This document shows, piece by piece, positions 6,301 through 51,635 of a DNA stretch of 64,000 nucleotides. Below the pieces are notes generated by a model that saw only the letters and a list, made by a program, of their open reading frames with translations, was not told the DNA's origin and ran no database searches. Source of the stretch: Alphaproteobacteria bacterium UBA6411 (GTDB taxonomy: Bacteria > Pseudomonadota > Alphaproteobacteria > CAAGCB01 > CAG-977); assembly GCA_002438565.1 (NCBI GenBank), contig DJPN01000022.1:2492-66491 (forward strand), in the 5' to 3' direction. The position numbers and the translations under genes are program-made. The first letter of the stretch is position 1, and the number at the start of each line of letters is the position of its first letter.

Positions 6301-7466
6301 TCAATGAAACGGGACGCAACAGTGTAGGGAGCATTGCGGCGCAAATAAGCCGAATGTCTGCCATGCTGTCGAGCGAACTGATGTACAGCGCGCGGCAGTC
6401 CGAAGAAGCGACGGCGGCACTGGAAAACCAAATGGCGTCTTATTGCCAGACTTTGCAAAACAGTTTGTTTTCCAATGCAAAGGCGATTGAACGCGCGTCT
6501 GAAAAATTGTTATCCGATTTCCAATTGTTGACGGCGGAAACGAAAACGGCGGGTGAAAAGGCAAACCTTGCCATCAAGGAATGCGGTTTGAACGCTAAAG
6601 ACGGACTGTTGCATCTGACAGAAAAATTAACCCGTCAGACTGCTGAAATCAGCGCGAGTGTCAGCAACGCTTTGAAAGAGCAGACCTCTGGTTTGAAATC
6701 GGAACTGACGGAGTTGTCAAAAGGCTTTTCAGAGAAACAGAATGAAAACGCGCAAGATTTAAAGCAAAAAATACAAAAGGCGCAGACGGAAGCACGACAA
6801 AATTATCAAGAATTGAACTTTGCAGATTTGTTTCACGACACCACTTTGCAAACAGCTTGGCTGAAAGACAAATCTTTCACCTGTTTCCGCGGGGCGGCGA
6901 ACTATAGTTTTCTTTATACGCTGTTCAGAGTTTTGGACAACGCCAATCCTCAAACAATTTTGGAAATGGGAATGGGGCAAACGTCCAAACTGACAACTCA
7001 ATATGCGGCGTTCAAACATCCCGAGGCAAGACTGGATATTGTCGAAAACGACAAAAACTGGATTGACCTTTATTCAGCACAATTGGCAAAGGGGGACAAT
7101 ATCCGCATCCATCATCAAGAACTGGAATTCTTTACGGTAAACGGGATTGCTTGCCGCAAATATGCCGATATGACGCCGATTGTCCAAGACACGAAATATC
7201 AGCTGATTGTCGTTGACGGACCTTTCGGTGCCGACCAGCCGCAACCGAGGACGAACATTATCGGGCTGATTGACAACAATAACCTTGCCGACGATTTCGT
7301 CATCATATTCGACGATGCCGAACGGGCTGGCGAACAGGATACTATTCGCAAAACGAAGCAAAAACTGTCCGAAAAGGGAATTAAATTCGTGGAAGACAAG
7401 CGCACGGGCATTAAAACTCAAATTTTGCTGTTGAGCGAAAGCCGTTCTTTTATCAACTTTTTGTAA
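3390..7466 (+). CDS. Giant multidomain glycosyltransferase: N-terminal repeat motif, three GT2 domains, a long coiled coil, and a C-terminal SAM-methyltransferase-like Rossmann domain
   Basis: 1358 aa, with AGGAGG 7 nt upstream of the ATG. There are three GT-A openers with following DDGS/D-x-D motifs: FSVIVASYNY (~3780), FSVIMPTYNR (~4535) and VSTIITSFNH (~5214). A heptad-like Q/E/K/L-rich segment spans ~6040-6800. The C-terminus has ILEMGMGQTS ... VVDGPFG ... IIFDDAER. The central part (~4080-6000) is visibly much more AT-rich than both ends. Confidence 0.8.
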   Translation: MNRGFLKTLRFFHLINKKAYKKRMKKYAPEYRAIAKSPLFDAKWYLEHNPDVAAAKADPVEHYLTIGWKEDRPTSPYFDGQAYLRMYSDVAGENENPLLHYELFGKNEGRKLKETCNVALQKKMPRKDVFFSVIVASYNYRDYIQETLDSLVNQTYTNFEVIVVDDGSTDDSVEVIQQYVDKYPFIHLYRHPNGENKGLPATVKLGVEKSKGEYIAFCESDDYWTANHLAEVNKLITSSKNVKIVVNDVSLFGDGKRAEYVERNLMPLRRHELIKSPLCMTRYDFRIRNWIVTFSAVCVKKKQLNNVDILNNPRPANEDWWLWRQVCYGNKIYYIDKQLTAWRMHNSYMTKDSAKTDVCDKQRLFLEECDKLLDRKGNFMTSFSVIMPTYNRKKMITNAIDSLLCQSYKIFELIIVDDGSTDGTDDFLKKKYEKEISSGIIRYFYQKNSGCCKARNFGLKMAKNDWIAYLDSDNELANDFLKTMASAIECNPNAKTFYGKFHAINSDKDRIVGQEFDFNCLISENFIDLGVFVHHRSVGEQLGGFDENMTRLVDYDLITRYVREYKPIFIDKIIMKYNDGNESDRISKSGNLMDNWNYYKIKNTNFIKVSTIITSFNHEKYIEQAIESAITQQGNFIHEIIISDDGSSDETPKIIEKYAIKYPHLIRNISEKRNVGISKNMKKCIKEATGKYIFICEGDDYWCDVFKIKKQIEFSEKHGYSFVFNDIKIFNEEKNTITCAIQHKTLNNELCGWDALKAPELSLPVTFSCCMFDSKILKNIPEILYEGRLSEIGLFFYFEKFSKIGYIPQAMTVYRQHKGSVWSGASEEDKKRQKIRVREVALAVCRKEYKKTLEKIIAQLKGTTPNSANPFFSITKQGNKKIYRVLGLKITRKNRFAALSAEIAQNRVENGELFAKLHQALSKQIVDALSRQDIVKKELGNLNNEIKSLVEKQNKLQEALSKSTDLTVAAINETGRNSVGSIAAQISRMSAMLSSELMYSARQSEEATAALENQMASYCQTLQNSLFSNAKAIERASEKLLSDFQLLTAETKTAGEKANLAIKECGLNAKDGLLHLTEKLTRQTAEISASVSNALKEQTSGLKSELTELSKGFSEKQNENAQDLKQKIQKAQTEARQNYQELNFADLFHDTTLQTAWLKDKSFTCFRGAANYSFLYTLFRVLDNANPQTILEMGMGQTSKLTTQYAAFKHPEARLDIVENDKNWIDLYSAQLAKGDNIRIHHQELEFFTVNGIACRKYADMTPIVQDTKYQLIVVDGPFGADQPQPRTNIIGLIDNNNLADDFVIIFDDAERAGEQDTIRKTKQKLSEKGIKFVEDKRTGIKTQILLLSESRSFINFL

Positions 7467-37795: not shown

Positions 37796-38524
37796 TTATT
37801 TTTCTAAAGTTTCAAGTGCTTGTTTTTTATCTTGAACGGCGGGCGGTTCGTCTTCATCGCCGTGAACGGACGAAACGTACATCAGCGCCAGCATTGCGAA
37901 AATGTAAGCTTGAATCATCCCCGTGAACAGCCCGAACACCTGCATCGGCAAAGGCAGAATGAACGGCACCAGCATCAGGCAAACCGAACCGATGATGACG
38001 CCCGACAACACATTGCCGAACAAACGGACGGCCATCGCGCCCGTCGACGTCAGTTCGCTTAAAACGTTGAACGGCAGCATCGCGGGCGACGGTTCGATGT
38101 ATTTTTTCAGATACTTTTTCAATCCCGCGTCCTTAATGCCGAAAAACGGAATCCCGAACAGCACCATGACCGCCAAAGCCCCCGTCGTGGACAGCGACGC
38201 CGTCGGCGATTTGAATTCGGGAACCAAAGTCAACAAATTGCACGTCAGAATGAACAAAAACAGCGTCCCGATGAACGGCAGATACGTCATCGCCCTGTTT
38301 GCTTTCGTCATTTCGCTGATTTGTCCGTAAATGGCTTTGACCATGACTTCCATCGCGGTTTGCCAGTGGGATACTTTGTCGCCCGTCTTTAAATTGCGTG
38401 TCGCCAGAAACGACACCAGCATCAGCACCGCCATCACAATCCACGTCGACGCAATCGTCCAGTTGACGGGAAAGTTGAAATACGGCATCACAAAAGCGAT
38501 TTGCCGATCGTAAACTTCTAACAT
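37796..38524 (-). CDS. atpB: N-type F1Fo ATPase a subunit
   Basis: 242 aa, polytopic. AVRLFGNVLSG contains the conserved stator Arg. Confidence 0.88.
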   Translation of the reverse strand: MLEVYDRQIAFVMPYFNFPVNWTIASTWIVMAVLMLVSFLATRNLKTGDKVSHWQTAMEVMVKAIYGQISEMTKANRAMTYLPFIGTLFLFILTCNLLTLVPEFKSPTASLSTTGALAVMVLFGIPFFGIKDAGLKKYLKKYIEPSPAMLPFNVLSELTSTGAMAVRLFGNVLSGVIIGSVCLMLVPFILPLPMQVFGLFTGMIQAYIFAMLALMYVSSVHGDEDEPPAVQDKKQALETLEK

Positions 38525-38817
38525 GCGGGTTTCTCCTTTGCCCTCAGTTGTTTTTTAACCGTGCGGACGATGACGAAACGGGCGATGAACAGCCCGACGA
38601 CGCCCGACAGCAAAACCTGTTCGTCGTAACGCGTCAAAACAAACAATCCGCCAATCAGTCCGACGGAACGCGCCAGCCAGCTGAAAAACAGAAAACGTTT
38701 TTTGTTTTCAACGGCTTTCAAGCGCATGACCGACCAAAACAGCCCGCCGAAATACAGCGCGCCCATCACCGCGCCCGCGACCAAACCGATTGAAATCGAA
38801 ACGGGATTCAAGTTCAT
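38518..38817 (-). CDS. atpR: N-ATPase subunit AtpR
   Basis: 99 aa membrane protein. GALYFGGLFWSVMRL contains the membrane-embedded Arg typical of AtpR. Its position between atpQ and atpB is diagnostic. Confidence 0.72.
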   Translation of the reverse strand: MNLNPVSISIGLVAGAVMGALYFGGLFWSVMRLKAVENKKRFLFFSWLARSVGLIGGLFVLTRYDEQVLLSGVVGLFIARFVIVRTVKKQLRAKEKPAC

Positions 38818-39233
38818 TGTTCCCCCTCGTCTTCTTCGGCTTCGCGAGCCTTGGCGTCGGCGTCATCCTCCGCCCGTTCGACCAAAGCGTTGCGGCGGTT
38901 TTGTTCCTTTTGCGCGCGGTCGATTCCCTCGCGCTTCAGCCATTGCCAAGCACTGACTAAGCCGACCAGAAATCCCAGCAGCAGAAAGTTCAGCGTCCAC
39001 GACACCGACGCGACTTTGTGATTCGCGTCCATCCACCGCCCCAGCATCACGCCCAGAAAAGTCGGAATCGGAATGTTCCAGCCCAGCGCGCCCAGAAAAG
39101 CCAGCCCCATGGCGGGTTTGAAAGCGTCTTTGTCCGTTTTGTTGACCAAGTGACGCGACGCGCGGCGCGCCAGCCGTTCCGCCAAAGCGTTTTCGGTTTT
39201 CATCTGTTCTTTTTTGGCAAGTTCCAAATTCAT
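38814..39233 (-). CDS. atpQ: N-ATPase subunit AtpQ (AtpI/AtpZ-like)
   Basis: 139 aa with two TM segments (GLAFLGALGWNIPIPTFLGVMLGRW; LNFLLLGFLVGLV), lying after atpC. Confidence 0.68.
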   Translation of the reverse strand: MNLELAKKEQMKTENALAERLARRASRHLVNKTDKDAFKPAMGLAFLGALGWNIPIPTFLGVMLGRWMDANHKVASVSWTLNFLLLGFLVGLVSAWQWLKREGIDRAQKEQNRRNALVERAEDDADAKAREAEEDEGEQ

Positions 39234-39237
39234 AAAG

Positions 39238-41093
<1,856 letters not shown>

Positions 41094-41123: not shown

Positions 41124-43220
41124 TCAACCTTTATTTTCGGGAATTGACGGCGGCAAAGACGGCGGAGATTCGGGTTCCGCTGCGGGTTCGGGAGCGGGCG
41201 GCGCCGAATGGGTCATCATGGACGCGGGCATTTTGGGCATGCCGACGCCGACTTTTCCCAATGTCGATTTAAAGCCCTTGATAACGGGAATTTTAATCCG
41301 CTTGACGGGCGCCGCGTCGGGATTGGGCACGCTGTTTTGCTGGCGCGCAGCCTGCATTTGAGCGCGCTTCCACGCGGGCAAATCCTCGTCTTCGTTGCCC
41401 GTTTCGTTCAGTTTGAACGTCGGCGGAGGAGGCGGACGATCATCCACGTTGTCATCCATTTTTGCTTCGACGGTAACGGCTTCCTCGATTTGTTTGTTCT
41501 GCTCTTCGGGCGACAAAACGACGATTTCGACGCCTTTTTTGTCCTTGGGGCGAACGATTTTGACCAAATCGTCTGGACCGACTTTGTCATACATCATCAA
41601 AACCGCCAGCGGGTTTTCGATATGGTGCTGAATCAAGCGTTTGATTTCACGCACGCCGTTTTTGGCGATAAAGACTTCGTCCGCAAACCATTTGCGCGCT
41701 TCCAAAGTCAGTTCCGCGCGAATGTTCACGGCCTTGGCGCGCTTGACGAATTTATTCAAGTGAATGTCCACGATTGCCAGCAGGTTTTCCTCCGCCAATC
41801 CGTGGAACGGAATGATGTCGTCAATACGGGCAAGGAATTCGGGACGCAGGTTTTTGCGCAAAAACTCCATACGCTGATAACGCGGCAGGTTCGCGCCCAA
41901 GTTCGACGTCATAATCACCACCGTGTTGCGGAAATCGACCGTCAAACCTTTGCCGTCCGTCAAACGCCCTTCGTCCAACAGCTGCAGCATCAAGTTCAAA
42001 ATTTCGCTGTGCGCTTTTTCCATTTCGTCGAACAAAACCACTTGATAAGGGCGCAAACGCACGGCTTCGGTCAAAACGCCGCCCTGCTCGAACCCCGGAG
42101 TCCCCGGAGGAGGACCCAGCAGACGCTGAACGGACACTTTTTCCATGTATTCGGACATATCCAAGCGCAGCAAAGCCGTTTCGTCGTCAAACATAAATTC
42201 GGACAGCGCTTTGGCCAATTCGGTTTTACCGACGCCCGTCGTACCGATGAACAGGAACGTTCCCAGCGGACGGTTCGGATCCTGCAATCCCGACTTCATA
42301 CGTCTGACCGCGCCCGAAATGACGGAAATCGCTTCGGGCTGGCCGATAACGCGCCGCCCCAGAAAGTTTTCAAGGTCAATAAGGCGTTTTTTGTCCTCGG
42401 CATCGACCTTGTCCATCGGAATCCCCGTCCATGCGGAAATGATGTTCGCGACGTGCTGTTTGTTCAAAACGGTATCGGTCGTTTTCTTTTCGTCCAAATC
42501 CATCATCAAGCCCGTTGCGGCTTCGTCCAGCAAGTCAATCGCCTTTTCGGGGAACAGACGGGACTTGACGTAACGCCCCGCCATTGAAACGGCGTTCTGC
42601 ACGATTTCGTCATCAATTTGGATTTTGTATTTTTCCGCCAGACGCTTGCCCACCCCGCGCAGAATGTCCGTCGTTTCCGCGGGCGTCGGTTCTTCGACGT
42701 ACATGGTTTGCAGACAGCTCATCAAATCGGGGTCTTGTTCGATATACTGCTTAAAAGCGTTCAGTTCGGCTTCGACAACGCATTTGATTCCGCCGTCAAG
42801 GACTTTCGGCTTCAAAAACTTGGGAATTTCGGGGTTGCCGTTCGGCGTGCGCGCCAGAAAGCCCAAGTCGTTGATGTACAAAATCATCTGATCGCCCGCA
42901 GCCTGGATTTGCTGGAACGCTTCTTTCAAGTGTTCCTCGTATTCCGCCTGTGTTTTGGAATCAATCATCATCGTCGCGATGTCGACGCCGACCAGCTTGC
43001 GCCCCTGCAGTTTCGGCGGCACGCGGTTTTCCGCCAGCGCTTTGGCGAAACCTTCGACAATCGACGTTTTGCCGATGCCCGTCGGCCCCAGCAGCATGGG
43101 GTTGTTTTTCGTGTCGCGCAGCAAAATGTGCATCACGCGGCGCTGTTCCTTTTCGCGTCCGATGACCAGCTTCAGCGTGCCGTTTTTGGCTTTTTCGGTA
43201 TAGTCGACAATATAGCTCAC
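41124..43220 (-). CDS. Atypical Clp/Hsp100 AAA+ ATPase: no N-domain, no M-domain, degenerate NBD1 Walker B, Pro-rich C-terminal tail
   Basis: I place the start at GTG 43220, with GGGGGAGG 7 nt upstream and a GTGA overlap with the dapF stop. The track start at 43247 is TTG. NBD1 has GPTGIGKTS but ILYINDLG instead of hhhhDE. AIDLLDEA is present. NBD2 is intact (GTTGVGKTELA, VVLFDEMEKAH, GPPPGTPGFEQGG). The last ~170 aa are low complexity (DRPPPPPTF ... PPAPEPAAEPESPPSLPPS). Confidence 0.8.
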   Translation of the reverse strand: MSYIVDYTEKAKNGTLKLVIGREKEQRRVMHILLRDTKNNPMLLGPTGIGKTSIVEGFAKALAENRVPPKLQGRKLVGVDIATMMIDSKTQAEYEEHLKEAFQQIQAAGDQMILYINDLGFLARTPNGNPEIPKFLKPKVLDGGIKCVVEAELNAFKQYIEQDPDLMSCLQTMYVEEPTPAETTDILRGVGKRLAEKYKIQIDDEIVQNAVSMAGRYVKSRLFPEKAIDLLDEAATGLMMDLDEKKTTDTVLNKQHVANIISAWTGIPMDKVDAEDKKRLIDLENFLGRRVIGQPEAISVISGAVRRMKSGLQDPNRPLGTFLFIGTTGVGKTELAKALSEFMFDDETALLRLDMSEYMEKVSVQRLLGPPPGTPGFEQGGVLTEAVRLRPYQVVLFDEMEKAHSEILNLMLQLLDEGRLTDGKGLTVDFRNTVVIMTSNLGANLPRYQRMEFLRKNLRPEFLARIDDIIPFHGLAEENLLAIVDIHLNKFVKRAKAVNIRAELTLEARKWFADEVFIAKNGVREIKRLIQHHIENPLAVLMMYDKVGPDDLVKIVRPKDKKGVEIVVLSPEEQNKQIEEAVTVEAKMDDNVDDRPPPPPTFKLNETGNEDEDLPAWKRAQMQAARQQNSVPNPDAAPVKRIKIPVIKGFKSTLGKVGVGMPKMPASMMTHSAPPAPEPAAEPESPPSLPPSIPENKG

Positions 43221-44023
43221 GCAAAAACCTCCCCCGTAAAAGCGCAATGCGTCGCGCCCGTCATCAGAATATCTCCGTTGTCGTCCAGTTCAATCACCAA
43301 AGACCCGCCGTCCATTTTGATTTCGGCTTTGCGCGCGCTCAGCCCCCGCCGCACCGCCGCCGTCAAAGTCGCGCACGCCCCCGTGCCGCAGGCTTCGGTA
43401 ACGCCCGCGCCGCGTTCCCATACCCGCATGCGGACAAGGTCGGGCTTGACGACCTGCGCGAATTCGACGTTCACGCGTTCGGGAAACATCGGATGCGTTT
43501 CGACAAAGCTTCCCCACTTTTCAACGTCAAAGTTTTCGACATCGTCGACAAAGAAAACGGCGTGCGGATTGCCCACCGACACGCAGCACGGTTCGGGCAG
43601 TTCTGCGGAAACGCCTTTAACCGCCAGAGTGTCTTGAGTTTCGGCAATCGGAATTTCGTCCCAATTCAAGCGCGGCTTGCCCATATTGACGGAAGTCAGC
43701 CCGTTTTCCGCGCGCCAAGCTTTCAACAGCTTGCCGTCGGGAGCTTCCATTGTCAGCGAATCGACGCCCTTTTCATCCATCAGCAGCTTTGCCGTGCAGC
43801 GCGACCCGTTGCCGCACGCGCCCGCCGACGACCCGTCCGCGTTGAAAAACAGGATTTTAACATCGGCTTTGTCCGACGGTTTCAGCACGATTAACTGGTC
43901 AAAGCCGACGCCCGTTTTGCGGTTGCCTATCGCTTTGATTTCGTCGGGCGTCAAATCGACGCCGCGCATAATCACGAAATCGTTGCCCAGCCCGTCCATT
44001 TTGATAAAGGGGATTTTTTTCAT
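43217..44023 (-). CDS. dapF: Diaminopimelate epimerase
   Basis: The ATG at 44023 (ATGA overlap with the dapL stop) gives MKKIPFIKMDGLGNDFVI ..., with NADGSSAGACGNGSRC and ERGAGVTEACGTGA (the two catalytic Cys). Confidence 0.93.
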   Translation of the reverse strand: MKKIPFIKMDGLGNDFVIMRGVDLTPDEIKAIGNRKTGVGFDQLIVLKPSDKADVKILFFNADGSSAGACGNGSRCTAKLLMDEKGVDSLTMEAPDGKLLKAWRAENGLTSVNMGKPRLNWDEIPIAETQDTLAVKGVSAELPEPCCVSVGNPHAVFFVDDVENFDVEKWGSFVETHPMFPERVNVEFAQVVKPDLVRMRVWERGAGVTEACGTGACATLTAAVRRGLSARKAEIKMDGGSLVIELDDNGDILMTGATHCAFTGEVFA

Positions 44024-45219
44024 AAGCTCAAATTTCCGATGCGTTCCAAAGCTTTCAAAGTGTTTTCGCGCGTTCCGAACGACGTCAGGCGGACATAGCC
44101 TTCGCCGCACGCGCCGAAACCGCTGCCCGGCGTGCAGACCAGCTGAGCGTCGTGCAGCAGTTTTTCAAAGAACATCACCGACGTCATTCCCATCGGGGTC
44201 GCCAGCCAGATATACGGCGCGTCCTTGCCGCCGTAGACGGTAAAGCCTTTTGCCTGCAAGCCCTCGCGAATCAAGCGCGCGTTTTCCATATAGTAGTCGG
44301 TCATCGCCTTGACTTCGCGTTTGCCCTCGTCGGAAAACACGGCTTCGGCGGCGCGCTGAATAACATACGCCACGCCGTTGAATTTCGTGCAGTGACGGCG
44401 GCTCCACAGCGGGTTCAGCTCGACTTCCGCCCCCGACGGCGCCATTGCTTTCAACGCGTGCGGCACGACCATATAAGCGCACCGAACGCCCGTAAAGCCC
44501 GCCGTTTTGGAAAACGACCGCAGTTCAATCGCGACTTCTTTCGCGCCGTCGATTTCGTAAATGCTGTGCGGAATGCTGTCTGTGCGGATGTATTCCTTGT
44601 ACGCGGAATCGAAGATGATGACCGCTTTGTTCTGTTGGGCGTAACGCACCCATTGGGTCAATTCCTCTTTGGTCATGACTGACCCCGTCGGGTTGTTGGG
44701 CGAACACAGATAAATCAAATCGCACGCCGTTTTGGGCAAAGCGGGCGAAAATCCCGATTCGCGCGTGCAGGGCAAAAACGTCAAAGAACGCCCCGCCATG
44801 ATGTTCGTGTCGCGGTAAACGGGATAAACGGGGTCGGGAATGGCGACTTTCGCCGTCGTGTCGAAAATTTCCTGAATGTTGCCGACATCGCATTTGGCGC
44901 CGTCGGATACGAAAACCTCGTCCGCCGCGATATCGATGCCGCGCGCTTTGTAGTCGTTGTCGACAATCGCTTGGCGCAAAAATTCGTAGCCCTGCTCCGG
45001 ACCGTAGCCGCGCATGGTTTCGACCGCGCCCATTTCGTCGGCGGCTTTGTGCATCGCCTTGATGCAGGCGGCGGGAATGGGCTGCGTTACGTCGCCGATG
45101 CCCAGACTGATAACCTCGGCCGCGGGGTTTTGTTCCTTGTACGCCTTGATTTTGCGGGCGATTTCTTGAAACAGATAGTTGGCGGACAAATCAAAATAAT
45201 GAGGGTTTGCTTTAATCAT
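44020..45219 (-). CDS. dapL: LL-diaminopimelate aminotransferase
   Basis: The ATG at 45219 follows AAGGTG. MIKANPHYFDLSANYLFQEIARKI ... VISLGIGDVTQPIP ... FVSDGAKCD ... SFSKTAGFTG is collinear with plant/chlamydial DapL. Confidence 0.85.
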   Translation of the reverse strand: MIKANPHYFDLSANYLFQEIARKIKAYKEQNPAAEVISLGIGDVTQPIPAACIKAMHKAADEMGAVETMRGYGPEQGYEFLRQAIVDNDYKARGIDIAADEVFVSDGAKCDVGNIQEIFDTTAKVAIPDPVYPVYRDTNIMAGRSLTFLPCTRESGFSPALPKTACDLIYLCSPNNPTGSVMTKEELTQWVRYAQQNKAVIIFDSAYKEYIRTDSIPHSIYEIDGAKEVAIELRSFSKTAGFTGVRCAYMVVPHALKAMAPSGAEVELNPLWSRRHCTKFNGVAYVIQRAAEAVFSDEGKREVKAMTDYYMENARLIREGLQAKGFTVYGGKDAPYIWLATPMGMTSVMFFEKLLHDAQLVCTPGSGFGACGEGYVRLTSFGTRENTLKALERIGNLSL

Positions 45220-45238
45220 TTTTTGCACCTTAAATCAA

Positions 45239-45526
45239 TCAAGCGTTTTTCAAAACAGGGGCGTCATAGACCTGCTGCGGTTCGCCGTCGGCGTCCAGCT
45301 CGCACACCAGAATTTGGGGGGATTGTTCGATTTTTTCGCGAATGGCATCGGGAATATGCTCCAGCGAAATCCGCGGCGTGTCGGCGGAACGGAACAAAAA
45401 AGCGTCCGAATTCTGCAATGTGAAAAACGGGTCTTTCGCCAAGCCCCCGATTCCGCTGAACATTAAAACGGGTTCGTCCCCGTCGTTGGTCGTAAAATCA
45501 TAATCCCGCAATTTAATGACAGTCAT
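45239..45526 (-). CDS. Hypothetical 95-aa acidic protein
   Basis: The ATG follows AAGGA. The composition is host-like. I recognised no family. Confidence 0.5.
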   Translation of the reverse strand: MTVIKLRDYDFTTNDGDEPVLMFSGIGGLAKDPFFTLQNSDAFLFRSADTPRISLEHIPDAIREKIEQSPQILVCELDADGEPQQVYDAPVLKNA

Positions 45527-45652
45527 TTTACCGTCCTTTATCCTTTAACTTTTCAAGCAGTTCAGTCTAATCGAATTTTTCCCCCTTTGCAAAGGATTAA
45601 GTAACAAAAACGGCACGGCGCGCAAGCAAGGCTTGTTCGGTGTTTTTTTTAT

Positions 45653-45681
45653 TTGAAAGATCACCGTCTGTTTTGTAAACT
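45653..45681 (+). promoter_or_regulatory. Near-consensus sigma70 promoter driving the structured RNA / methyltransferase operon
   Basis: TTGAAA lies at 45653-45658, followed by a 17-nt spacer and TAAACT at 45676-45681. The predicted start is ~45688-45690, right at the first hairpin. A perfect 12-bp palindrome CCTTTGCAAAGG (45584-45595) lies upstream. Confidence 0.5.
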
Positions 45682-45687
45682 GGCTTT

Positions 45688-45961
45688 GTCCGCGCAAAAT
45701 CGGTTTGTGCGGAAAGTGCCTTAGCGGGTGCGGAGCCGTGAGAAAGCTCTAATGTTGTTCGGCGTGGGTATGCGTCGTAATTCGTGTTGTTTAAGTACGA
45801 ACACGAAAAAGTATCCCCGAATCTGTTTATGGTTCGGGGGGCTTTCGGCGTATGTTCAAAAGTCCCGATTTGAATCGGATAACTTTAAAGGTCGAAAGGG
45901 TCTTGTAACAACATTATGACTTTCTCAACTCCCCGAACCGCTTTAGGGCGGTTTTTGGGGA
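45688..45961 (+). ncRNA. Unclassified ~270-nt highly structured RNA (leader or independent ncRNA) preceding the methyltransferase-nuclease pair
   Basis: There is a 9-bp hairpin at 45690-45712. A 7+10-bp closing helix pairs 45740-45759 with 45907-45926 and encloses hairpins at 45781-45807, 45815-45839, 45840-45864 and 45865-45878. A terminal hairpin lies at 45931-45960. The G-T pairs (45694/45708 and 45841/45863) are compatible only with plus-strand transcription. Confidence 0.5.
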
Positions 45962-45967
45962 TTTTTT
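45931..45967 (+). terminator. Intrinsic terminator / RBS-sequestering hairpin abutting the methyltransferase ATG
   Basis: CCCCGAACCGC (45931-45941) pairs with GCGGTTTTTGGGG (45948-45960). A T6 tract at 45962-45967 follows, and the ATG is at 45968. The only purine-rich SD candidate (GGGGA, 45957-45961) is the 3' arm of the stem. Confidence 0.65.
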
Positions 45968-46981
45968 ATGGCTAAAGCAACAGGAAACGCAAAACTGCAC
46001 CAAGCGCAACACAATGGAAACGATGAATATTACACGCAACTGTCCGATATAGAAAACGAACTGAAACACTATAGAAACTTTTTCAACGGAAAAACCGTTT
46101 TCTGCAACTGCGACGACCCGTATGAAAGCAATTTTTTCAAATACTTCGCTTTGAATTTCAATGCACTGGGTTTGAAAAAACTAATCGCGACCTGCTATTC
46201 GGCATCGCCCGTTATGGGGCGGGAACTGCCGTTGTTTGACAGAATGAACGGGAAAAAAGCGTACAAAATCGAAATTACCGAAGTAATTGACACGAATAAC
46301 GACGGCGCGGTCGATTTGTCCGATGTTGAATATTTGATAAAACACGGGAAAAACACTTTAAGCGTTTTGGAGGAAAACGGTGATTTTCGCTCAGCCGAAT
46401 GTGTTTATTTATTGAATCAAGCCGATATTGTCGTAACAAATCCTCCGTTCAGCCTGTTTCGGGAATATGTTGCACAACTGATTGAATTTAAAAAAGAATT
46501 TTTAATTGTCGGCAACAAAACGGCAATTACTTATGCCGAAATTTTCAAATTGATAAAAGAAAATAAAATTTGGTTGGGATATACCCCGAAAATTAAGCGT
46601 TTTCGAGTCCCTGATTATTACGAGGGAAAACTGATTTCAAAAGAAAGTGACGGGAAAAAATACGCAAACAATGTCGGAAATGTTTCGTGGTTCACAAACT
46701 TGGACGTTTCTATCAGAAATGAAAAAATTGTTTTGTATAAAAAATACATTCCGGAGGAATATCCGAAATACGACAATTACGACGCGATTAACGTGGATAA
46801 AGTCGCTGACATTCCAGTCGATTACGACGGCGTGATGGGCGTTCCGATTACTTTTTTGGACAAGTACAACCCGAACCAATTTGAAATCGTCAAATTCAGA
46901 AAAGGAAACAATGAACGGGATCTGTCAATCAACGGAAAATGCCCGTTTTTCCGCATTTTAATCAAAAGGAAAAAATCATGA
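45968..46981 (+). CDS. N6-adenine DNA methyltransferase, EcoRI-methylase-like family
   Basis: 337 aa. It has NDEYYTQ near the N-terminus, DIVVTNPPFSLFREY (NPPF at 46439-46450) and VMGVPITFL. The composition is AT-rich. Confidence 0.82.
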   Translation: MAKATGNAKLHQAQHNGNDEYYTQLSDIENELKHYRNFFNGKTVFCNCDDPYESNFFKYFALNFNALGLKKLIATCYSASPVMGRELPLFDRMNGKKAYKIEITEVIDTNNDGAVDLSDVEYLIKHGKNTLSVLEENGDFRSAECVYLLNQADIVVTNPPFSLFREYVAQLIEFKKEFLIVGNKTAITYAEIFKLIKENKIWLGYTPKIKRFRVPDYYEGKLISKESDGKKYANNVGNVSWFTNLDVSIRNEKIVLYKKYIPEEYPKYDNYDAINVDKVADIPVDYDGVMGVPITFLDKYNPNQFEIVKFRKGNNERDLSINGKCPFFRILIKRKKS

Positions 46982-48054
46982 AAATCGAACTGCATCAAAT
47001 CACCATCCGCGACGTTTTCAACGGTTATCGAAACAATGACGAAAACGGCGTCGTCGGATACGGCGGAAAGCTGAACATCCGCCCGCCGTATCAGCGCGAA
47101 TTCGTCTATGACGACAAAAAGCGAAACGCCGTTATCGAAACGGTTTTCAAGGGTTTTCCGCTGAACGTGATGTACTGGTCGAAAAACGCCGACGACACTT
47201 TTGAACTGCTGGACGGACAGCAAAGAACGCTGAGCCTGTGCGCTTACGCCAACGGGGACTATTCGTTTAACAGCAAATATTTTCACAACCTGACGGAAAC
47301 GGAAAAAAATCAGATTCTGGATTACCCGCTGATGATTTATGTTTGCACGGGCAACGACAAAGAACGGCTGGACTGGTTTAAAACAATCAACATCGCGGGT
47401 GAAAAACTGACCGACCAAGAATTGCGCAACGCCAATTACACGGGAACTTGGCTGACCGATGCCAAGCGACATTTCAGCAAAACGAATTGCGCCGCTTACA
47501 ACTTAGCAAGCAAATATATGAACGGTTCGCCGATTCGGCAGGATTATTTGGAAACGGTGCTGCGCTGGATAAGCGCGGACAATATCGAAGACTATATGGC
47601 GCAACATCAAAACGCCCCGAACGCAATCGAGTTGTGGCTTTATTTTCAAAGCGTCATCGCTTGGGTTCAAGCCGTTTTTCCGAAATACCGCAAGGAAATG
47701 AAAGGGCTCGACTGGGGGCGGCTGTACAATTCGTTTGGGAATCAAAACTTTGGCAACTTTGAAGCGCAAATTGCAAATTTGATGGAAGACGAAGACGTTT
47801 CCAACAAAAAAGGCATTTACGAATATCTGCTGTCGGGCGACGAACGGAAATTAAGCTTGCGCACGTTTTCGGACAAAATGAAACGCGAAGCTTACGAACA
47901 GCAAAAAGGAATCTGCCCCAAATGCGGGCAACATTTTGAATTTGAAGAAATGGAAGGCGACCATATCGTTCCGTGGAGCAAAGGCGGACATACAACGGCT
48001 GGCAATTGTCAAATGCTGTGCCGCCGCGACAACGGAATCAAATCCAACCGTTAA
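46978..48054 (+). CDS. DUF262 (ParB/Srx-fold, DGQQR) - HNH endonuclease fusion
   Basis: The ATG at 46978 overlaps the MTase stop (ATGA), giving 358 aa. It has IRPPYQREFVYD and LLDGQQRT (DGQQR at 47212-47226). The C-terminal CPKCGQHFEFEEMEGDHIVPWSKGGHTTAGNCQMLCRRDNGIKSN is a canonical HNH. Confidence 0.85.
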   Translation: MKIELHQITIRDVFNGYRNNDENGVVGYGGKLNIRPPYQREFVYDDKKRNAVIETVFKGFPLNVMYWSKNADDTFELLDGQQRTLSLCAYANGDYSFNSKYFHNLTETEKNQILDYPLMIYVCTGNDKERLDWFKTINIAGEKLTDQELRNANYTGTWLTDAKRHFSKTNCAAYNLASKYMNGSPIRQDYLETVLRWISADNIEDYMAQHQNAPNAIELWLYFQSVIAWVQAVFPKYRKEMKGLDWGRLYNSFGNQNFGNFEAQIANLMEDEDVSNKKGIYEYLLSGDERKLSLRTFSDKMKREAYEQQKGICPKCGQHFEFEEMEGDHIVPWSKGGHTTAGNCQMLCRRDNGIKSNR

Positions 48055-48085
48055 GACATTAAAGATGAGATATTGAATATAAAAA

Positions 48086-48110
48086 CGGCTCCGTAAAAAA
48101 AACGGAGCCG
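48086..48110. terminator. Hairpin between convergent genes (a better terminator on the minus strand)
   Basis: A CGGCTCCGT / ACGGAGCCG 9-bp stem with an A7 loop. On the minus strand it is followed by TTTTTA. Confidence 0.6.
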
Positions 48111-48132
48111 CTTGAATTTGCTAAACCGCTTA

Positions 48133-48585
48133 TTAGCGCGAACGCATGCGGTTCGCAATCGCCGCCTGAACGGCTTTGTTGGGTTCCGCTTTCTTTTCGG
48201 CGGAAACGTCGCGATGGGTCATGCCGCCGCTCGGATTGCCGAAAGCCGCATACAATTCGCCCGCTTCTTTCCAGAACGATTTTTTGGGTTCATCCTTTTT
48301 CGGTTCGGCTTTGGCGGGTTCGGCCGTTTTTGCCGTTTCCTGTGCGGGAACGTCGCGGTGCGTCATACCGCCGCCCGGATTACCAAAAGCCGCGTACAAT
48401 TCGCCGGCTTCTTTCCACAGGGATTTTTTGGGTTCGGCTTTTTCCTTTTTGGGTTCGGCCTTGGCTTCGGGAGCTTTTTCAGCTTTGTCCGCCGGCATAT
48501 CGCTGTGCGTCATGCCGCCGCTCGGATTGCCGAAACGGGCGTACAAATCGGCGACTTTGCCCCAGAACGATTTTTTTTCTTCCAT
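48133..48585 (-). CDS. Hypothetical protein built of three ~48-aa tandem repeats
   Basis: 150 aa, with 3 copies of KKSFW(K/G)(E/K)(A/V)(G/A)(E/D)LYA(A/R)FGNP(S/G)GGMTH(R/S)D(V/M) separated by AEPKK-rich linkers. I recognised no family. Confidence 0.65.
   Translation of the reverse strand: MEEKKSFWGKVADLYARFGNPSGGMTHSDMPADKAEKAPEAKAEPKKEKAEPKKSLWKEAGELYAAFGNPGGGMTHRDVPAQETAKTAEPAKAEPKKDEPKKSFWKEAGELYAAFGNPSGGMTHRDVSAEKKAEPNKAVQAAIANRMRSR
48200..48580 (-). repeat. Three in-frame tandem DNA repeats of ~148-150 bp (coding)
   Basis: Compare CATGCCGCCGCTCGGATTGCCGAAAGCCGC (48.21 kb), CATACCGCCGCCCGGATTACCAAAAGCCGC (48.36 kb) and CATGCCGCCGCTCGGATTGCCGAAACGGGC (48.51 kb). Confidence 0.8.
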
Positions 48586-48682
48586 AACGCTTCTCCTACC
48601 AGAAAATCTGTTGAATTTTCTTTATCCTTGCACGTTTTTTCCTTTTTGTCAATTTTTTCTTCTAAAAAAGACAAAAAAGTTT

Positions 48683-49045
48683 TTACGCTTTAACAGCGAC
48701 CTCGTAAGCGCGTTCAATCATATCCATAACGTCGTCTTCGGACGTTTCTGCGTTTTCCGATTTGGCATAAGCGGTCAAAGCTTTGTCCAACATGTCAATG
48801 CTTTTCAAAACATTGGTTTCAATGACCAGAATTTTGGAAACGCCCGCCAAGTCTTTCATCACGTCTTCGTCGATTTGCGTCAGCAGAATGTCGCCCTTCG
48901 GAGAACGTTGGAAATGCAGGGTTGTCGCGTCTTTTTTCGTCAAAACGGGTTTTTCCGGCTCGCCTTCAAACGCGGGCAAAAACACGGAAATCATCCCCGC
49001 TTCGTTTTTTACAAACTGAGGGGACGGCAATTCGTTAATATCCAT
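48683..49045 (-). CDS. Hypothetical 120-aa acidic protein
   Basis: The ATG at 49045 has GAAGGAG 8 nt upstream; the track start at 49051 is TTG. I recognised no family. Confidence 0.5.
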   Translation of the reverse strand: MDINELPSPQFVKNEAGMISVFLPAFEGEPEKPVLTKKDATTLHFQRSPKGDILLTQIDEDVMKDLAGVSKILVIETNVLKSIDMLDKALTAYAKSENAETSEDDVMDMIERAYEVAVKA

Positions 49046-49083
49046 TTTCAAACTCCTTCGGTTGAATTTTTAACCAAGTATAC

Positions 49084-49114
49084 AAAAAAGCCCTTGTCGA
49101 AACAAGGGCTTTTC
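49084..49114 (-). terminator. Rho-independent terminator of secF
   Basis: AGCCCTTGT-CGAA-ACAAGGGCT; on the minus strand it is followed by T6. Confidence 0.75.
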
Positions 49115-49127
49115 GTCATCCGAATGT

Positions 49128-50063
49128 TTAACCCGCGTGTTCAAACGGGTTGACGTTTTCGTTGTGGCTTTCCATCGTTTTGCGGATGTCCAGATACATC
49201 AGCACGGGCATCGCGACGTAAATCGACGAATACGTGCCGACGATAATGCCCCACAGCATAATCAAGGCAAAGCCCTGCAGCACCGAACCGCCCATGAACA
49301 GCATCACAACCAGCATGATAATGGTCGACATGCCCGTCAGCAAAGTGCGCGGCAACATTTCGTTGGTTGTTTTGTTAATCATTTCGTCAATCGGCATTTT
49401 GCGGTATTTGCGCAGATTTTCGCGCATGCGGTCATAGGAAACAATGGTGTCGTTGACGGAAAATCCCGCCAGCGTCATCAGTCCCGCGATAATCGTCATG
49501 TCGAAATCCAGCCGGAACACGGAAAACAGACCGACGGCAATGATGATGTCGTGAATCAGCGACAGCATTGTTCCCAGCGCGAATTCCCATTCAAAGCGCG
49601 TCCAAACATAGGCGGTAATCATCAGTCCCGCCAGAATGACCGCCCAAATGCAGTTGCGGATAAGCTCCGCGCCCACACGGGGGCCGACCATTTCAACGCG
49701 GCGGATGGTATATTCGTCGCCCAGTTTTTCACGAATGACGGACGAGATTTTCATCTGTTCCTTTTCATTGTCGCCGCGTCCCAAAGCGGTAATCAAAGCT
49801 TCCGTTCCCTGTTCGCCGACAGGCTGCAAATCGACGCCGAGATCGTCCAGTTTCGCGCGCAGATCTTTCATGTCGATTTTCTGTTCGGCTTGGACTTCCA
49901 TCAATACGCCGCCCTTAAAGTCGATGCCCAAATTCATGCCTTGGGTGCAAATCGACACAATCGACACAATCATCATCAACAGCGAAAACACAAATGCGAT
50001 TTTGCGCGCGCCGATAAAGTTAATGTGCGTCGGTTTAATGAAATAATGAATCAGTCTAGGCAT
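49128..50063 (-). CDS. secF: Protein translocase subunit SecF
   Basis: 311 aa, with NFIGARKIAF, GIDFKGG and six TM segments. Confidence 0.93.
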   Translation of the reverse strand: MPRLIHYFIKPTHINFIGARKIAFVFSLLMMIVSIVSICTQGMNLGIDFKGGVLMEVQAEQKIDMKDLRAKLDDLGVDLQPVGEQGTEALITALGRGDNEKEQMKISSVIREKLGDEYTIRRVEMVGPRVGAELIRNCIWAVILAGLMITAYVWTRFEWEFALGTMLSLIHDIIIAVGLFSVFRLDFDMTIIAGLMTLAGFSVNDTIVSYDRMRENLRKYRKMPIDEMINKTTNEMLPRTLLTGMSTIIMLVVMLFMGGSVLQGFALIMLWGIIVGTYSSIYVAMPVLMYLDIRKTMESHNENVNPFEHAG

Positions 50064-50075
50064 TTCACATTCTCC

Positions 50076-51635
50076 TTACACATTGATTCTTTGCGGCTTT
50101 GTGAGCTTCACCCACGCCAAAATCAGCACTTTTGTCACATAAACGGCCGTAAACACGGACGTCACCAAACCCAAACAGGTGGTAACACCGAACCCGCGGA
50201 CAGGGCCGTTGCCCAGCCAAATCAAAATCAACCCCGCAAACAAGCTGGTCAAGTTTGAATCGAAAATCGCGGACGAAGCGTTTTCAAATCCCGCTTCAAT
50301 CGTGTTCAAAACGGATTTGCCGTAGCCCTGTTCTTCACGCATGCGTTCGTAAATCAAAACGTTTGCGTCGACCGCCATGCCCAACGTCAGAGCAATACCC
50401 GCAATTCCGGGCAAAGTCAGCGTCGCGCCCAGCGCGCTCATCGCGCCGCACAGCAGCAGCAGGTTCAGCACCAAAGCGATATCGGCGAACAAGCCGAACA
50501 GCCCGTAAGTCGCGACCACGAACAACAGCACCAGCACCATGCCGACCACGCAGGATTTTTTGCCCGCGTCAATCGAATCGGTTCCCAGTCCGGGACCGAC
50601 GATGCGTTCTTCAACGACTTCCAGCGGCGCGGGCAAAGCGCCCGAACGCAGCATCAGCGCCAAATCGTTCGCGCTTTGAACCGTAAAGCTGCCCGTGATA
50701 ATGCCCGAACCGCCCGTAATCGCGGATTTGACTTCGGGCGCGGTAATCACTTTGCCGTCCAAAACAATCGCCAAACGGCGGCCGACATTGTCGCGCGTCG
50801 CCGTTCCGAAACGTTTTGCGCCGAACGAATTGAAACGGAAAGCGACAACGGCTTCCGCCCCTTGGAAATCGGCGCGGGCATCGGTCAGATGTTCGCCGCC
50901 GACAATGGATTTGCGTTCAATGACATAAAACGCGGCGGAAGCGTCCTCGTCCCCCGGAACGACTTTGGAATCGGGGGCGATTTTGCCGCGGCGGGCGTCT
51001 TCGACACTGGTCTTTTCATCAACGAAATGGAACGACATCTTCGCCGTTTTGCCCAGCAGTTTTTTGACTTCGTTCGGGTCTTCCACACCGGGCAGCTGAA
51101 CTTGGATACGGTCGGAGCCTTGACGCATAATCGACGGTTCGCGCGTTCCCAGCTGATCAATACGGCGGCGGACGATTTCAATCGACTGGTCAACCGCGGA
51201 CGCTTTCATTTTCAGCAAAGCCTGTTCGGTAAAGCGAACGGACAGCATGTCGCCGTTTTCCGCAACGTCCAGATTGCCCTTGTCGATTTTGCGAATCAGC
51301 TCTTTGGCTTTGGCGATTTGTTCGTCATTGACGATTTTGACCGTCAAAGCGTCGTCTTTGACAGACAGATTCGTATAGCGCACGTTCTTTTCGCGCAAAG
51401 CGATGCGGGCGGCGTCCATGACCGCGCTCAGCTGATCCTTGACCACTTGATCCAAGTCGACCTGCAGCAACAGCTGAGAACCGCCCTGCAAGTCCAAACC
51501 CAACGTCATCGGCTGCCACCATTCGGGCAGTTTGTCCTGCTGCGCCTTGGGAATAAAGTTGGGGACGGCGAAAAACACGCCGACCGCCGTGATTATTCCG
51601 ATTAAGGCGACTTTCCATTTCGGATAGTTAAACAT
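50076..51635 (-). CDS. secD: Protein translocase subunit SecD
   Basis: 519 aa, with LGLDLQGG, a large periplasmic domain, and the C-terminal TM bundle with LTLPGIAGI. Confidence 0.93.
   Translation of the reverse strand: MFNYPKWKVALIGIITAVGVFFAVPNFIPKAQQDKLPEWWQPMTLGLDLQGGSQLLLQVDLDQVVKDQLSAVMDAARIALREKNVRYTNLSVKDDALTVKIVNDEQIAKAKELIRKIDKGNLDVAENGDMLSVRFTEQALLKMKASAVDQSIEIVRRRIDQLGTREPSIMRQGSDRIQVQLPGVEDPNEVKKLLGKTAKMSFHFVDEKTSVEDARRGKIAPDSKVVPGDEDASAAFYVIERKSIVGGEHLTDARADFQGAEAVVAFRFNSFGAKRFGTATRDNVGRRLAIVLDGKVITAPEVKSAITGGSGIITGSFTVQSANDLALMLRSGALPAPLEVVEERIVGPGLGTDSIDAGKKSCVVGMVLVLLFVVATYGLFGLFADIALVLNLLLLCGAMSALGATLTLPGIAGIALTLGMAVDANVLIYERMREEQGYGKSVLNTIEAGFENASSAIFDSNLTSLFAGLILIWLGNGPVRGFGVTTCLGLVTSVFTAVYVTKVLILAWVKLTKPQRINV

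Follow-up and report, generated by a model that had tools for sequence, protein, structure and literature searches.

A multi-copy family of structured leader RNAs that may control surface, pilus-like and restriction-modification genes in gut Alphaproteobacteria

A 64-kb stretch of contig DJPN01000022.1 from Alphaproteobacteria bacterium UBA6411, an uncultured gut alphaproteobacterium, contains a 441-nt gap between open reading frames (ORFs) that is predicted to encode a highly structured RNA directly ahead of a type II restriction-modification (R-M) pair. Copies of this RNA recur throughout the clade, and we consider it probable that the family is a clade-specific set of cis-regulatory leaders, multi-copy within single genomes, through which a signal gates surface, pilus-like and R-M genes. 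The 64-kb stretch is called the window below; coordinates count from its first position, and L-numbers (L001, L085, L192 and so on) denote the related loci compared with it. The gap, 45527-45967, separates a 95-aa minus-strand ORF from a 337-aa plus-strand ORF. The latter is an EcoRI-family N6-adenine DNA methyltransferase (MTase; MTase_II, 45968..46981, PF13651, 450 bits), and it is followed on the same strand by a restriction endonuclease (REase) of the GmrSD_N(DUF262)-HNH type (46978..48054, PADLOC REase_II, 462 bits) whose start overlaps the MTase stop as ATGA.

The element is widespread within a narrow group of hosts. A pattern built on its invariant bases matches 101 stretches in species-representative genomes, nearly all of them metagenome-assembled genomes (MAGs) of gut Alphaproteobacteria, and an nhmmer profile gives 121 hits, 102 of them distinct. 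Several single assemblies carry at least 4-7 copies, the locus L001 holds a second copy upstream of an unrelated secreted protein, and the pattern scan found no match in viral contigs. Within the window, neither blastn nor nhmmer detects a second copy. When the 441-nt gap was used as a blastn query against the best 80 MTase-homologue loci, the element was present only upstream of MTases in Alphaproteobacteria MAGs. Rfam 15 covariance models, applied in gathering-threshold and E-value scans, gave no hit in the whole window and nothing overlapping the RNA in seven divergent members of the family; the best-scoring model in 45400-46100 was AgvB, whose 21.3 bits fall short of its threshold of 56. 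Since no Rfam family matched and full-text searches of the literature yielded no description of the leader RNA, the family is apparently undescribed so far.

The evidence that the element acts as a folded RNA is comparative. On the plus strand, 45688-45961 folds at -109.6 kcal/mol (z = -6.80), a value reached by 0 of 200 dinucleotide-shuffled sequences. An alignment of the window copy with 81 non-redundant homologues (82 sequences, here A2) displays strong covariation: RNAalifold predicts 40 pairs on it, 22 of them with compensatory changes, and in a hand-curated structure 94.5% of the cells are paired, compared with 38-57% when the 3' partner is slid by 1-3 columns. Double changes occur in 24 pairs of that structure, and its covariation score of 0.383 is matched neither by the slid controls (at most 0.124) nor by any of 500 shuffles. 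The family was analysed by nhmmer, MAFFT and per-sequence duplex tests, the last because helices of variable sequence lie beyond what a MAFFT alignment can resolve and had to be tested one sequence at a time. Taken together, the comparisons predict a leader of about 230-280 nt whose compact domain consists of P1, an H-type pseudoknot, P3, P4, P4b, P5 and a P6-P7 arm whose internal loop is invariant.

A first-pass annotation of the window, made from its letters alone, had drawn this region as a set of hairpins enclosed by a 20-nt inverted repeat, with a 7-bp arm and a 10-bp arm separated by a 3x3 internal loop. All the complementarities it listed are present at the positions it gave, and homologues rearrange how they fit together. 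P1 (45716..45731, GUGCCU / GGGUGC) is 96.5% paired as helix 1, with double changes at four of its six pairs. It is followed by pseudoknot stem 1 (45732..45750), in which GGAGC at 45732-36 pairs with GCUCU at 45746-50; the CUC of the supposed internal loop is thus engaged locally, and a 4-bp stem of this kind occurs in 82 of 82 sequences, as GAGC/GCUC, GAGU/ACUC, GAAC/GUUC, GAAG/CUUC or GGAC/GUCU. Within the loop of stem 1 (45737-45745), GAGAAA (45740-45745) provides the 5' strand of the 7-bp arm, and the arm thereby becomes stem 2 of an H-type pseudoknot (45740-46 with 45920-26). The 3' strand of stem 2, CUUUCUC (45920..45926), is 96.3% paired as part of helix 3, with double changes at five of six pairs and compensatory pair types across the homologues (CG42/AU21/GC13, AU47/GC30); over 24 distinct sequences the cognate duplex has -6.64 kcal/mol and the non-cognate one -2.27. 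The 10-bp arm likewise survives as P3, in which a hypervariable 5' strand (45750..45759) is, in the per-sequence duplexes, always complementary to the 3' strand (45907..45916): 57 distinct 5' strands give -9.85 kcal/mol with their cognate partners against -2.37 with non-cognate ones. U45750 is common to P3 and to the G45732-U45750 pair that closes stem 1, so that it cannot serve both helices at once. The P3 3' strand is flanked by a conserved RUCA ... UGAY element (45907-45919; A2 columns 264-288), which shows a few compensatory variants (AUCU/AGAU, GUCG/UGGC) and could be an extra or alternative hairpin competing with P3.

Inside P3, the P4 hairpin (45760..45777, CGGCGU / GCGUCG) is 97.1% paired as helix 4 and has double changes at four pairs. 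The variable hairpin P4b (45781..45807, UUCGUGUU / AACACGAA) is conserved as a structure, with 79 distinct sequences folding at -11.9 kcal/mol against -3.6 when shuffled, while P5 (45814..45841, drawn in the first-pass annotation as 45815-45839) has strands, AUAUCCCCGA and UCGGGGAG, that are almost invariant in A2. The 3' strand of P5, UCGGGGAG, mimics a Shine-Dalgarno (SD) sequence and is complementary to the motif at the 3' end of the element. The P6-P7 arm (45844..45896) is paired at 97.0% in helix 6 and 99.5% in helix 7 and carries an invariant asymmetric internal loop, GUAUGUUCAGAAG / CUUUAAAGG. It takes the place of a 6-bp hairpin proposed at 45840-45864, which competes with the covarying P6 and P7 and finds no backing among the homologues: it is 80.7% paired, hardly more than in the shuffled (80.2%) and +1-slid (80.6%) controls. 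The small hairpin at 45865-45878 exists, but only as an optional tip of P7. At the 5' end, the 9-bp hairpin with one G-U pair (45690..45712) is kept through base changes in close relatives but is absent or replaced in distant copies. A 63-aa ORF that runs through the domain (45728-45919) was considered as a leader peptide and rejected, as the lengths of helices and loops across the family differ by non-multiples of three.

Folding energy by itself cannot choose the strand, since the minus strand reaches a z of -6.88, close to that of the plus strand. The pairs themselves do: family-wide, 13.8% of helix cells are G-U and 0.6% are C-A, and the helices are 97.3% paired when read from the plus strand and 84.1% when read from the minus strand. 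The abundance of G-U pairs and the rarity of C-A oppositions identify the plus strand as the RNA strand, and because the covariation is rich in G-U pairs, the fold is under selection as RNA. The same strand had been argued in the first-pass annotation from two G-T oppositions in the window, and the argument holds across the family, although one of the two, G45841-T45863, lies in the helix that the homologues do not support.

The position of the copies points to a role in cis. In about 85% of them, a same-strand ORF begins 10-130 nt further downstream, and the downstream genes fall into several classes. Among the 102 distinct copies, EcoRI-family MTases follow 13 and other R-M MTases (N6_N4, type ISP, Eco57I/MmeI-like) follow 8; proteins with a prepilin-type N-terminus follow 15, autotransporters (PF03797) 11, and lipoproteins or signal-peptide proteins at least 23, where only the MTases and autotransporters are confirmed by Pfam and the remaining classes are drawn from N-terminal sequence motifs. 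The prepilin-like, lipoprotein and Cys-rich downstream proteins gave no Pfam matches at 1e-3. At ten loci, pilin-like genes with the leader stand downstream of one and the same long ORF, which we take by eye to be topA, and for this reason the leader must also belong to stable chromosomal loci, a sign of vertical inheritance. A riboswitch-like or attenuator leader, one of several roles offered in the first-pass annotation, is thus the best-supported kind of explanation, but the annotation's tie to the MTase-nuclease operon does not hold, as the RNA is also found ahead of genes for prepilin-like proteins, autotransporters, lipoproteins and several unrelated MTases and is missing from homologous MTase loci in other phyla.

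On its 5' side, the window copy is preceded by a promoter-like TTGAAA-17-TAAACT (45653..45681, plus strand), the -10 end of which lies 34 nt from P1. This spacing is typical of the family (median 34 nt, interquartile range 31-34.5, in the 27 copies that match at 9/12 positions or better); so good a match is found in 33% of copies and 16% of shuffles, with a consensus of approximately TTGnnn-17-TAWMCT. Ten assemblies of the same species are collinear with the window and 100% identical across the RNA. Their lone difference within the 441-nt gap is a T8/T9 change in a T-run at 45643-45651, just 5' of the -35, which could reflect slippage or sequencing error.

On its 3' side, every copy closes with the motif AACUCYCCGA, an anti-SD sequence that in the window reads AACUCCCCGA (45927..45936) and at which homology to the cargo of other copies stops. 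In the window the motif enters a long terminator or sequestering hairpin, CUCCCCGAACCGC ... GCGGUUUUUGGGGA, followed by U6 (45930..45967, stem 45930-45961), whose 3' strand includes the SD sequence GGGGA (45957-45961) and whose U6 runs directly into the MTase ATG at 45968. Among 90 copies, 70 have a hairpin and T-run immediately 3' of the motif, and 20, mostly of the MTase type, have a longer hairpin that takes in both motif and SD before the T-run; the window copy is counted with the 70 because its inner hairpin also has a T-run, and its long hairpin holds motif and SD. The distance from motif to start codon has a median of 47 nt. The variable Y of the motif and the R of GGRGA further downstream covary (C:G 16, C:A 2, U:A 18, U:G 3; Fisher p = 3e-6, uncorrected for phylogeny), and the P5 strand UCGGGGAG is 98.2% complementary to CUCYCCGA over the 82 sequences.

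These features suggest a mechanism in which two partners compete for the 3' motif. Each copy would be transcribed on the plus strand from its own sigma-70-type promoter, and by default AACUCYCCGA would base-pair with the downstream gene's SD; in MTase-type copies, that of the window included, this pairing would also form the base of the terminator, so that transcription stops and translation is blocked. In the ON state, the P5 3' strand UCGGGGAG would capture the motif by strand exchange, breaking the base of the terminator and freeing the SD, and the REase would be expressed in turn through the ATGA overlap with the MTase stop. Of this, the comparisons establish the family with its fold and strand, its place ahead of ORFs, the terminator and the pairing of motif with SD; that the RNA switches at all is inferred, and the trigger may be a small molecule, a protein or another cue.

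Several observations weigh against this reading. The covariation of Y and R may be inflated by GC-rich and AT-rich subclades, and complementarity of at least 6 nt between SD and motif is found in 26% of cases compared with 12% for ordinary SD genes, a modest excess. The exchange between P5 and motif is beyond the reach of covariation because the bases involved are invariant; when it is forced on the window copy in a thermodynamic model, the energy rises from -115.3 to -104.4 kcal/mol, a cost of about 11, and the SD is not freed. In the 70 copies with a terminator after the motif, the overlap amounts to only about 2 bp, so that antitermination by strand exchange leaves those copies unexplained, and a search by eye for a co-varying antiterminator, complementary to the stems of the variable terminators, found none. 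Nine of the 102 copies are not directly followed by a normal ORF and lead instead into a conserved non-coding segment, and the 5' and 3' ends of the transcript are predictions.

A more ambitious version of the regulatory hypothesis, which we advance only tentatively, is that the family is a new orphan riboswitch class, in which a pseudoknotted aptamer of about 230 nt is combined with a regulon and with service as a portable header behind which foreign cassettes are exchanged. The signal could be one such as a signalling nucleotide or a cue tied to DNA uptake or the state of the envelope, and the regulon, at the same tentative level, would comprise the pseudopilins, autotransporter adhesins, lipoproteins and R-M methyltransferases of uncultured gut Alphaproteobacteria. 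Two general features of riboswitches are found here, a conserved, structured, aptamer-like domain supported by covariation and, to judge from the promoter-like site and the spacing to the ORF, a position in the same-strand 5' untranslated region.

Comparison with known systems places the family near several of them and inside none. Like the c-di-GMP riboswitches (GEMM-I/II), it consists of multi-copy structured cis leaders upstream of pilin, adhesin and surface genes, with terminators and/or SD sequestration as expression platforms, a regulon pattern known for GEMM from C. difficile, Vibrio and Geobacter. It differs from GEMM-I/II in matching no Rfam riboswitch model, in having a domain about twice the size and in having R-M methyltransferases as a major class of target. 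T-box leaders resemble it in their length of about 200-250 nt, their several stems and pseudoknot, their 3' intrinsic terminator and their many paralogous copies per genome with variable helices; the present RNA, however, has no T-box sequence, specifier architecture or Rfam hit, is not located upstream of aminoacyl-tRNA or amino-acid genes, and is hosted by Alphaproteobacteria. The elements of processive antitermination (EAR RNA, LoaP leader hairpins, RfaH/ops JUMPstart) are also conserved cis elements ahead of terminators, and the operons whose leaders hold them are accessory, surface or horizontally acquired ones; they either fall far short of this RNA in size or serve NusG paralogues as DNA/RNA signals, whereas no NusG-paralogue factor is linked to this family and an SD-sequestering motif is foreign to those systems. 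The family is not a member of the GEMM, T-box or processive-antitermination systems. With the Pc-attI platform of integrons and with island sites at tRNA and transfer-messenger RNA (tmRNA) genes it shares a conserved promoter unit with varied cargo after an invariant 3' end, and one copy even adjoins a tmRNA gene; unlike integrons, the copies have no adjacent integrase, attC or cassette arrays and no recurrent recombinase, and the leader unit is dispersed and can itself lie within an inserted block.

The window offers an example of such a block. In L192, a close relative at about 92% nucleotide identity, window positions 43000-45614 and 48081-50500 are contiguous, with the empty site at L192 5870-5970, and the segment 45615..48080, which holds promoter, leader RNA, MTase and REase, is therefore a single 2,466-bp present/absent unit. 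The halves of the L192 alignment overlap by a 9-bp direct repeat, AAAAACGGC, found on the left at 45606..45614 and on the right at 48081..48089. The block sits in the stem of a terminator hairpin and has neither terminal inverted repeats nor a transposase; the G+C content of the block and its R-M genes is 39-47%, and that of the flanks 52-56%. At the same-species locus L085 (3609-4767), the REase is called as two ORFs of 55 aa and 346 aa, and a frameshifted nuclease may stand next to an intact MTase there. Just beyond the block, a 150-aa ORF on the minus strand (48133-48585) contains three repeats of about 45 aa, each closing with FGNP(S/G)GGMTH(S/R)D and spaced by Lys/Glu/Pro-rich linkers, and matches no Pfam family at threshold. 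Further upstream, at 37796-41063 on the minus strand, ATP-synthase beta-like and epsilon-like ORFs, two small membrane ORFs and an a-subunit-like ORF stand in what we take to be the order of an N-type ATPase operon.

The window, L124 and L176 share one allele of the RNA, with the same P3 and pseudoknot, and beyond the junction AACTCYCCG|A each of the three carries a different cargo. In L105 (2443-2716, minus), L152 (2578-2859, minus) and L179 (700-978, plus) the 5' strands of P3 and pseudoknot mismatch the 3' strands, and the copies in L105 and L152 have the look of chimeras that join a 5' half and a 3' half from different paralogous leaders. Downstream of a gene that we read by eye from its reading frame as mnmG, the cargo behind the leader differs between species; L105 lies at this locus, where other species have an MTase. 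At nine junction copies (L124 at 6776-7200, L136, L134, L158, L161, L178, L152, L191 and L150) the RNA ends right after ACUCCCCG and gives way to a conserved segment of about 330 nt with GGTAACA-N5-GGTAACA repeats. Then comes a small ORF, presumably AlpA-like by eye, with further ORFs that to the eye resemble HsdM, Abi, a small MTase and SIR2; the L158 island, with defence-like ORFs, ends with a 206-aa ORF whose N-terminus we likewise take to be serine-recombinase-like. The 3' end of the RNA may serve as an attachment site. By these comparisons, recombination clearly does take place at or within the leader. In L124, L158, L150 and L161, an AUG 2-3 nt after ACUCCCCGC opens a short ORF (M-x-LKRF-x-FLS-x-SFN-x-LN...) with apparently conserved amino acids and no obvious SD. 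In L160, an alphaproteobacterial tmRNA gene (4713-5045, minus, 250 bits) adjoins a leader copy (5100-5360, plus) with a type IIG/ISP-like MTase behind it; tmRNA genes are well known as places where islands insert.

This mobility raises the question of whether the element works at the level of DNA, as a portable module of homology or recombination, a 'cassette header' whose invariant 3' motif is the site of crossover or attachment and behind which accessory genes are swapped or inserted as at an integron attI/Pc platform or at attB in a tRNA gene. The shared allele before three cargos, the chimeric L105 and L152, the nine island junctions (whose ORFs are identified by eye), the change of cargo downstream of the presumed mnmG and the joint travel of RNA and R-M genes in the window all speak for it. 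We nonetheless regard it as quite unlikely to be the main function, given that G-U-rich compensatory covariation in at least seven helices reflects selection on an RNA fold and not on DNA sites, that no recombinase recurs beside the copies among the ORF families recurring in related loci, that neither cassette arrays nor attC-like 3' ends are seen, and that recombination between conserved paralogous leaders is expected anyway. Such a role could exist alongside the regulatory one rather than replace it. The RNA might also be a stand-alone small RNA gene whose product of about 270 nt acts in trans or binds a protein, its nearness to downstream genes being secondary. The bracketing of the conserved domain by a promoter-like site and an intrinsic terminator fits that idea, as do the nine copies leading into a long conserved non-coding stretch instead of an ORF, and terminated riboswitch leaders can act in trans. 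Yet about 85% of the copies lie within 10-130 nt of an ORF in the same orientation, which leaves no space for a second promoter, and the 3' motif pairs and covaries with the SD of that ORF; we therefore consider a trans-acting gene improbable.

Readings that start from the inverted repeat fare worse. The many dispersed copies per genome, which the first-pass annotation had expected of a miniature inverted-repeat transposable element (MITE), or non-autonomous transposon, do occur, and the 20-bp inverted repeat does bound a unit of about 187 bp. We hold this explanation to be very unlikely all the same: the arms are the least conserved part, in 57 versions, around a conserved interior; conservation extends beyond the repeat to P1, pseudoknot stem 1, the 3' motif and the terminator; orientation is fixed relative to the downstream ORF; and many of the pairs are G-U. 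No target-site duplication is found at the ends of the repeat, direct repeats being found only around the 2.47-kb block, and it is this entire block, not the 187-bp segment, that is the unit of presence and absence in the window, where the element is single-copy. An invertible DNA switch (inverton) using the repeat as its recombination site would suit R-M MTases, pilins and surface proteins, classes typical of phase-variable loci, and besides the repeat itself there is the one island ORF with a serine-recombinase-like N-terminus by eye. The collinearity of the ten same-species assemblies, the location of the promoter outside the repeat and the G-U pairs, which point to RNA, count against it, and there can be no single invertase site because the repeat differs in sequence in almost every copy; we give the idea almost no credence. 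No more plausible are two ideas raised in the first-pass annotation: an RNA that guides or scaffolds the DUF262-HNH nuclease, which would be of the omega-RNA or HEARO kind, and a retron-like msr/msd. The RNA adjoins an HNH nuclease whose HNH domain weakly resembles that of Cas9, and the closing inverted repeat recalls retron a1/a2. For most copies, however, the gene that follows is unrelated to nucleases and a nuclease of this type is absent from the neighbourhood, and neither HEARO nor any other Rfam model gives a match; among the 80 MTase-homologue loci the RNA occurs only in Alphaproteobacteria, a comparison that covers the MTases and not the presence of the nuclease. No reverse transcriptase is seen among the ORFs of the window neighbourhood or the ORF families recurring in related loci.

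The reading that we favour, a multi-copy regulatory leader gating surface, pilus-like and R-M genes, would, if true, add a large and well-supported structured RNA class from a lineage without a cultured model. It would link the control of surface or pilus functions and of restriction-modification through one common leader; we know of no described parallel in which several types of R-M system share one structured leader with surface-protein genes. The invariant internal loop, the pseudoknot and the anti-SD switch would then be natural targets for the discovery of a ligand or protein partner. It would also mean that defence cassettes gained horizontally can come equipped with a regulatory header specific to the host clade, or be exchanged behind one.

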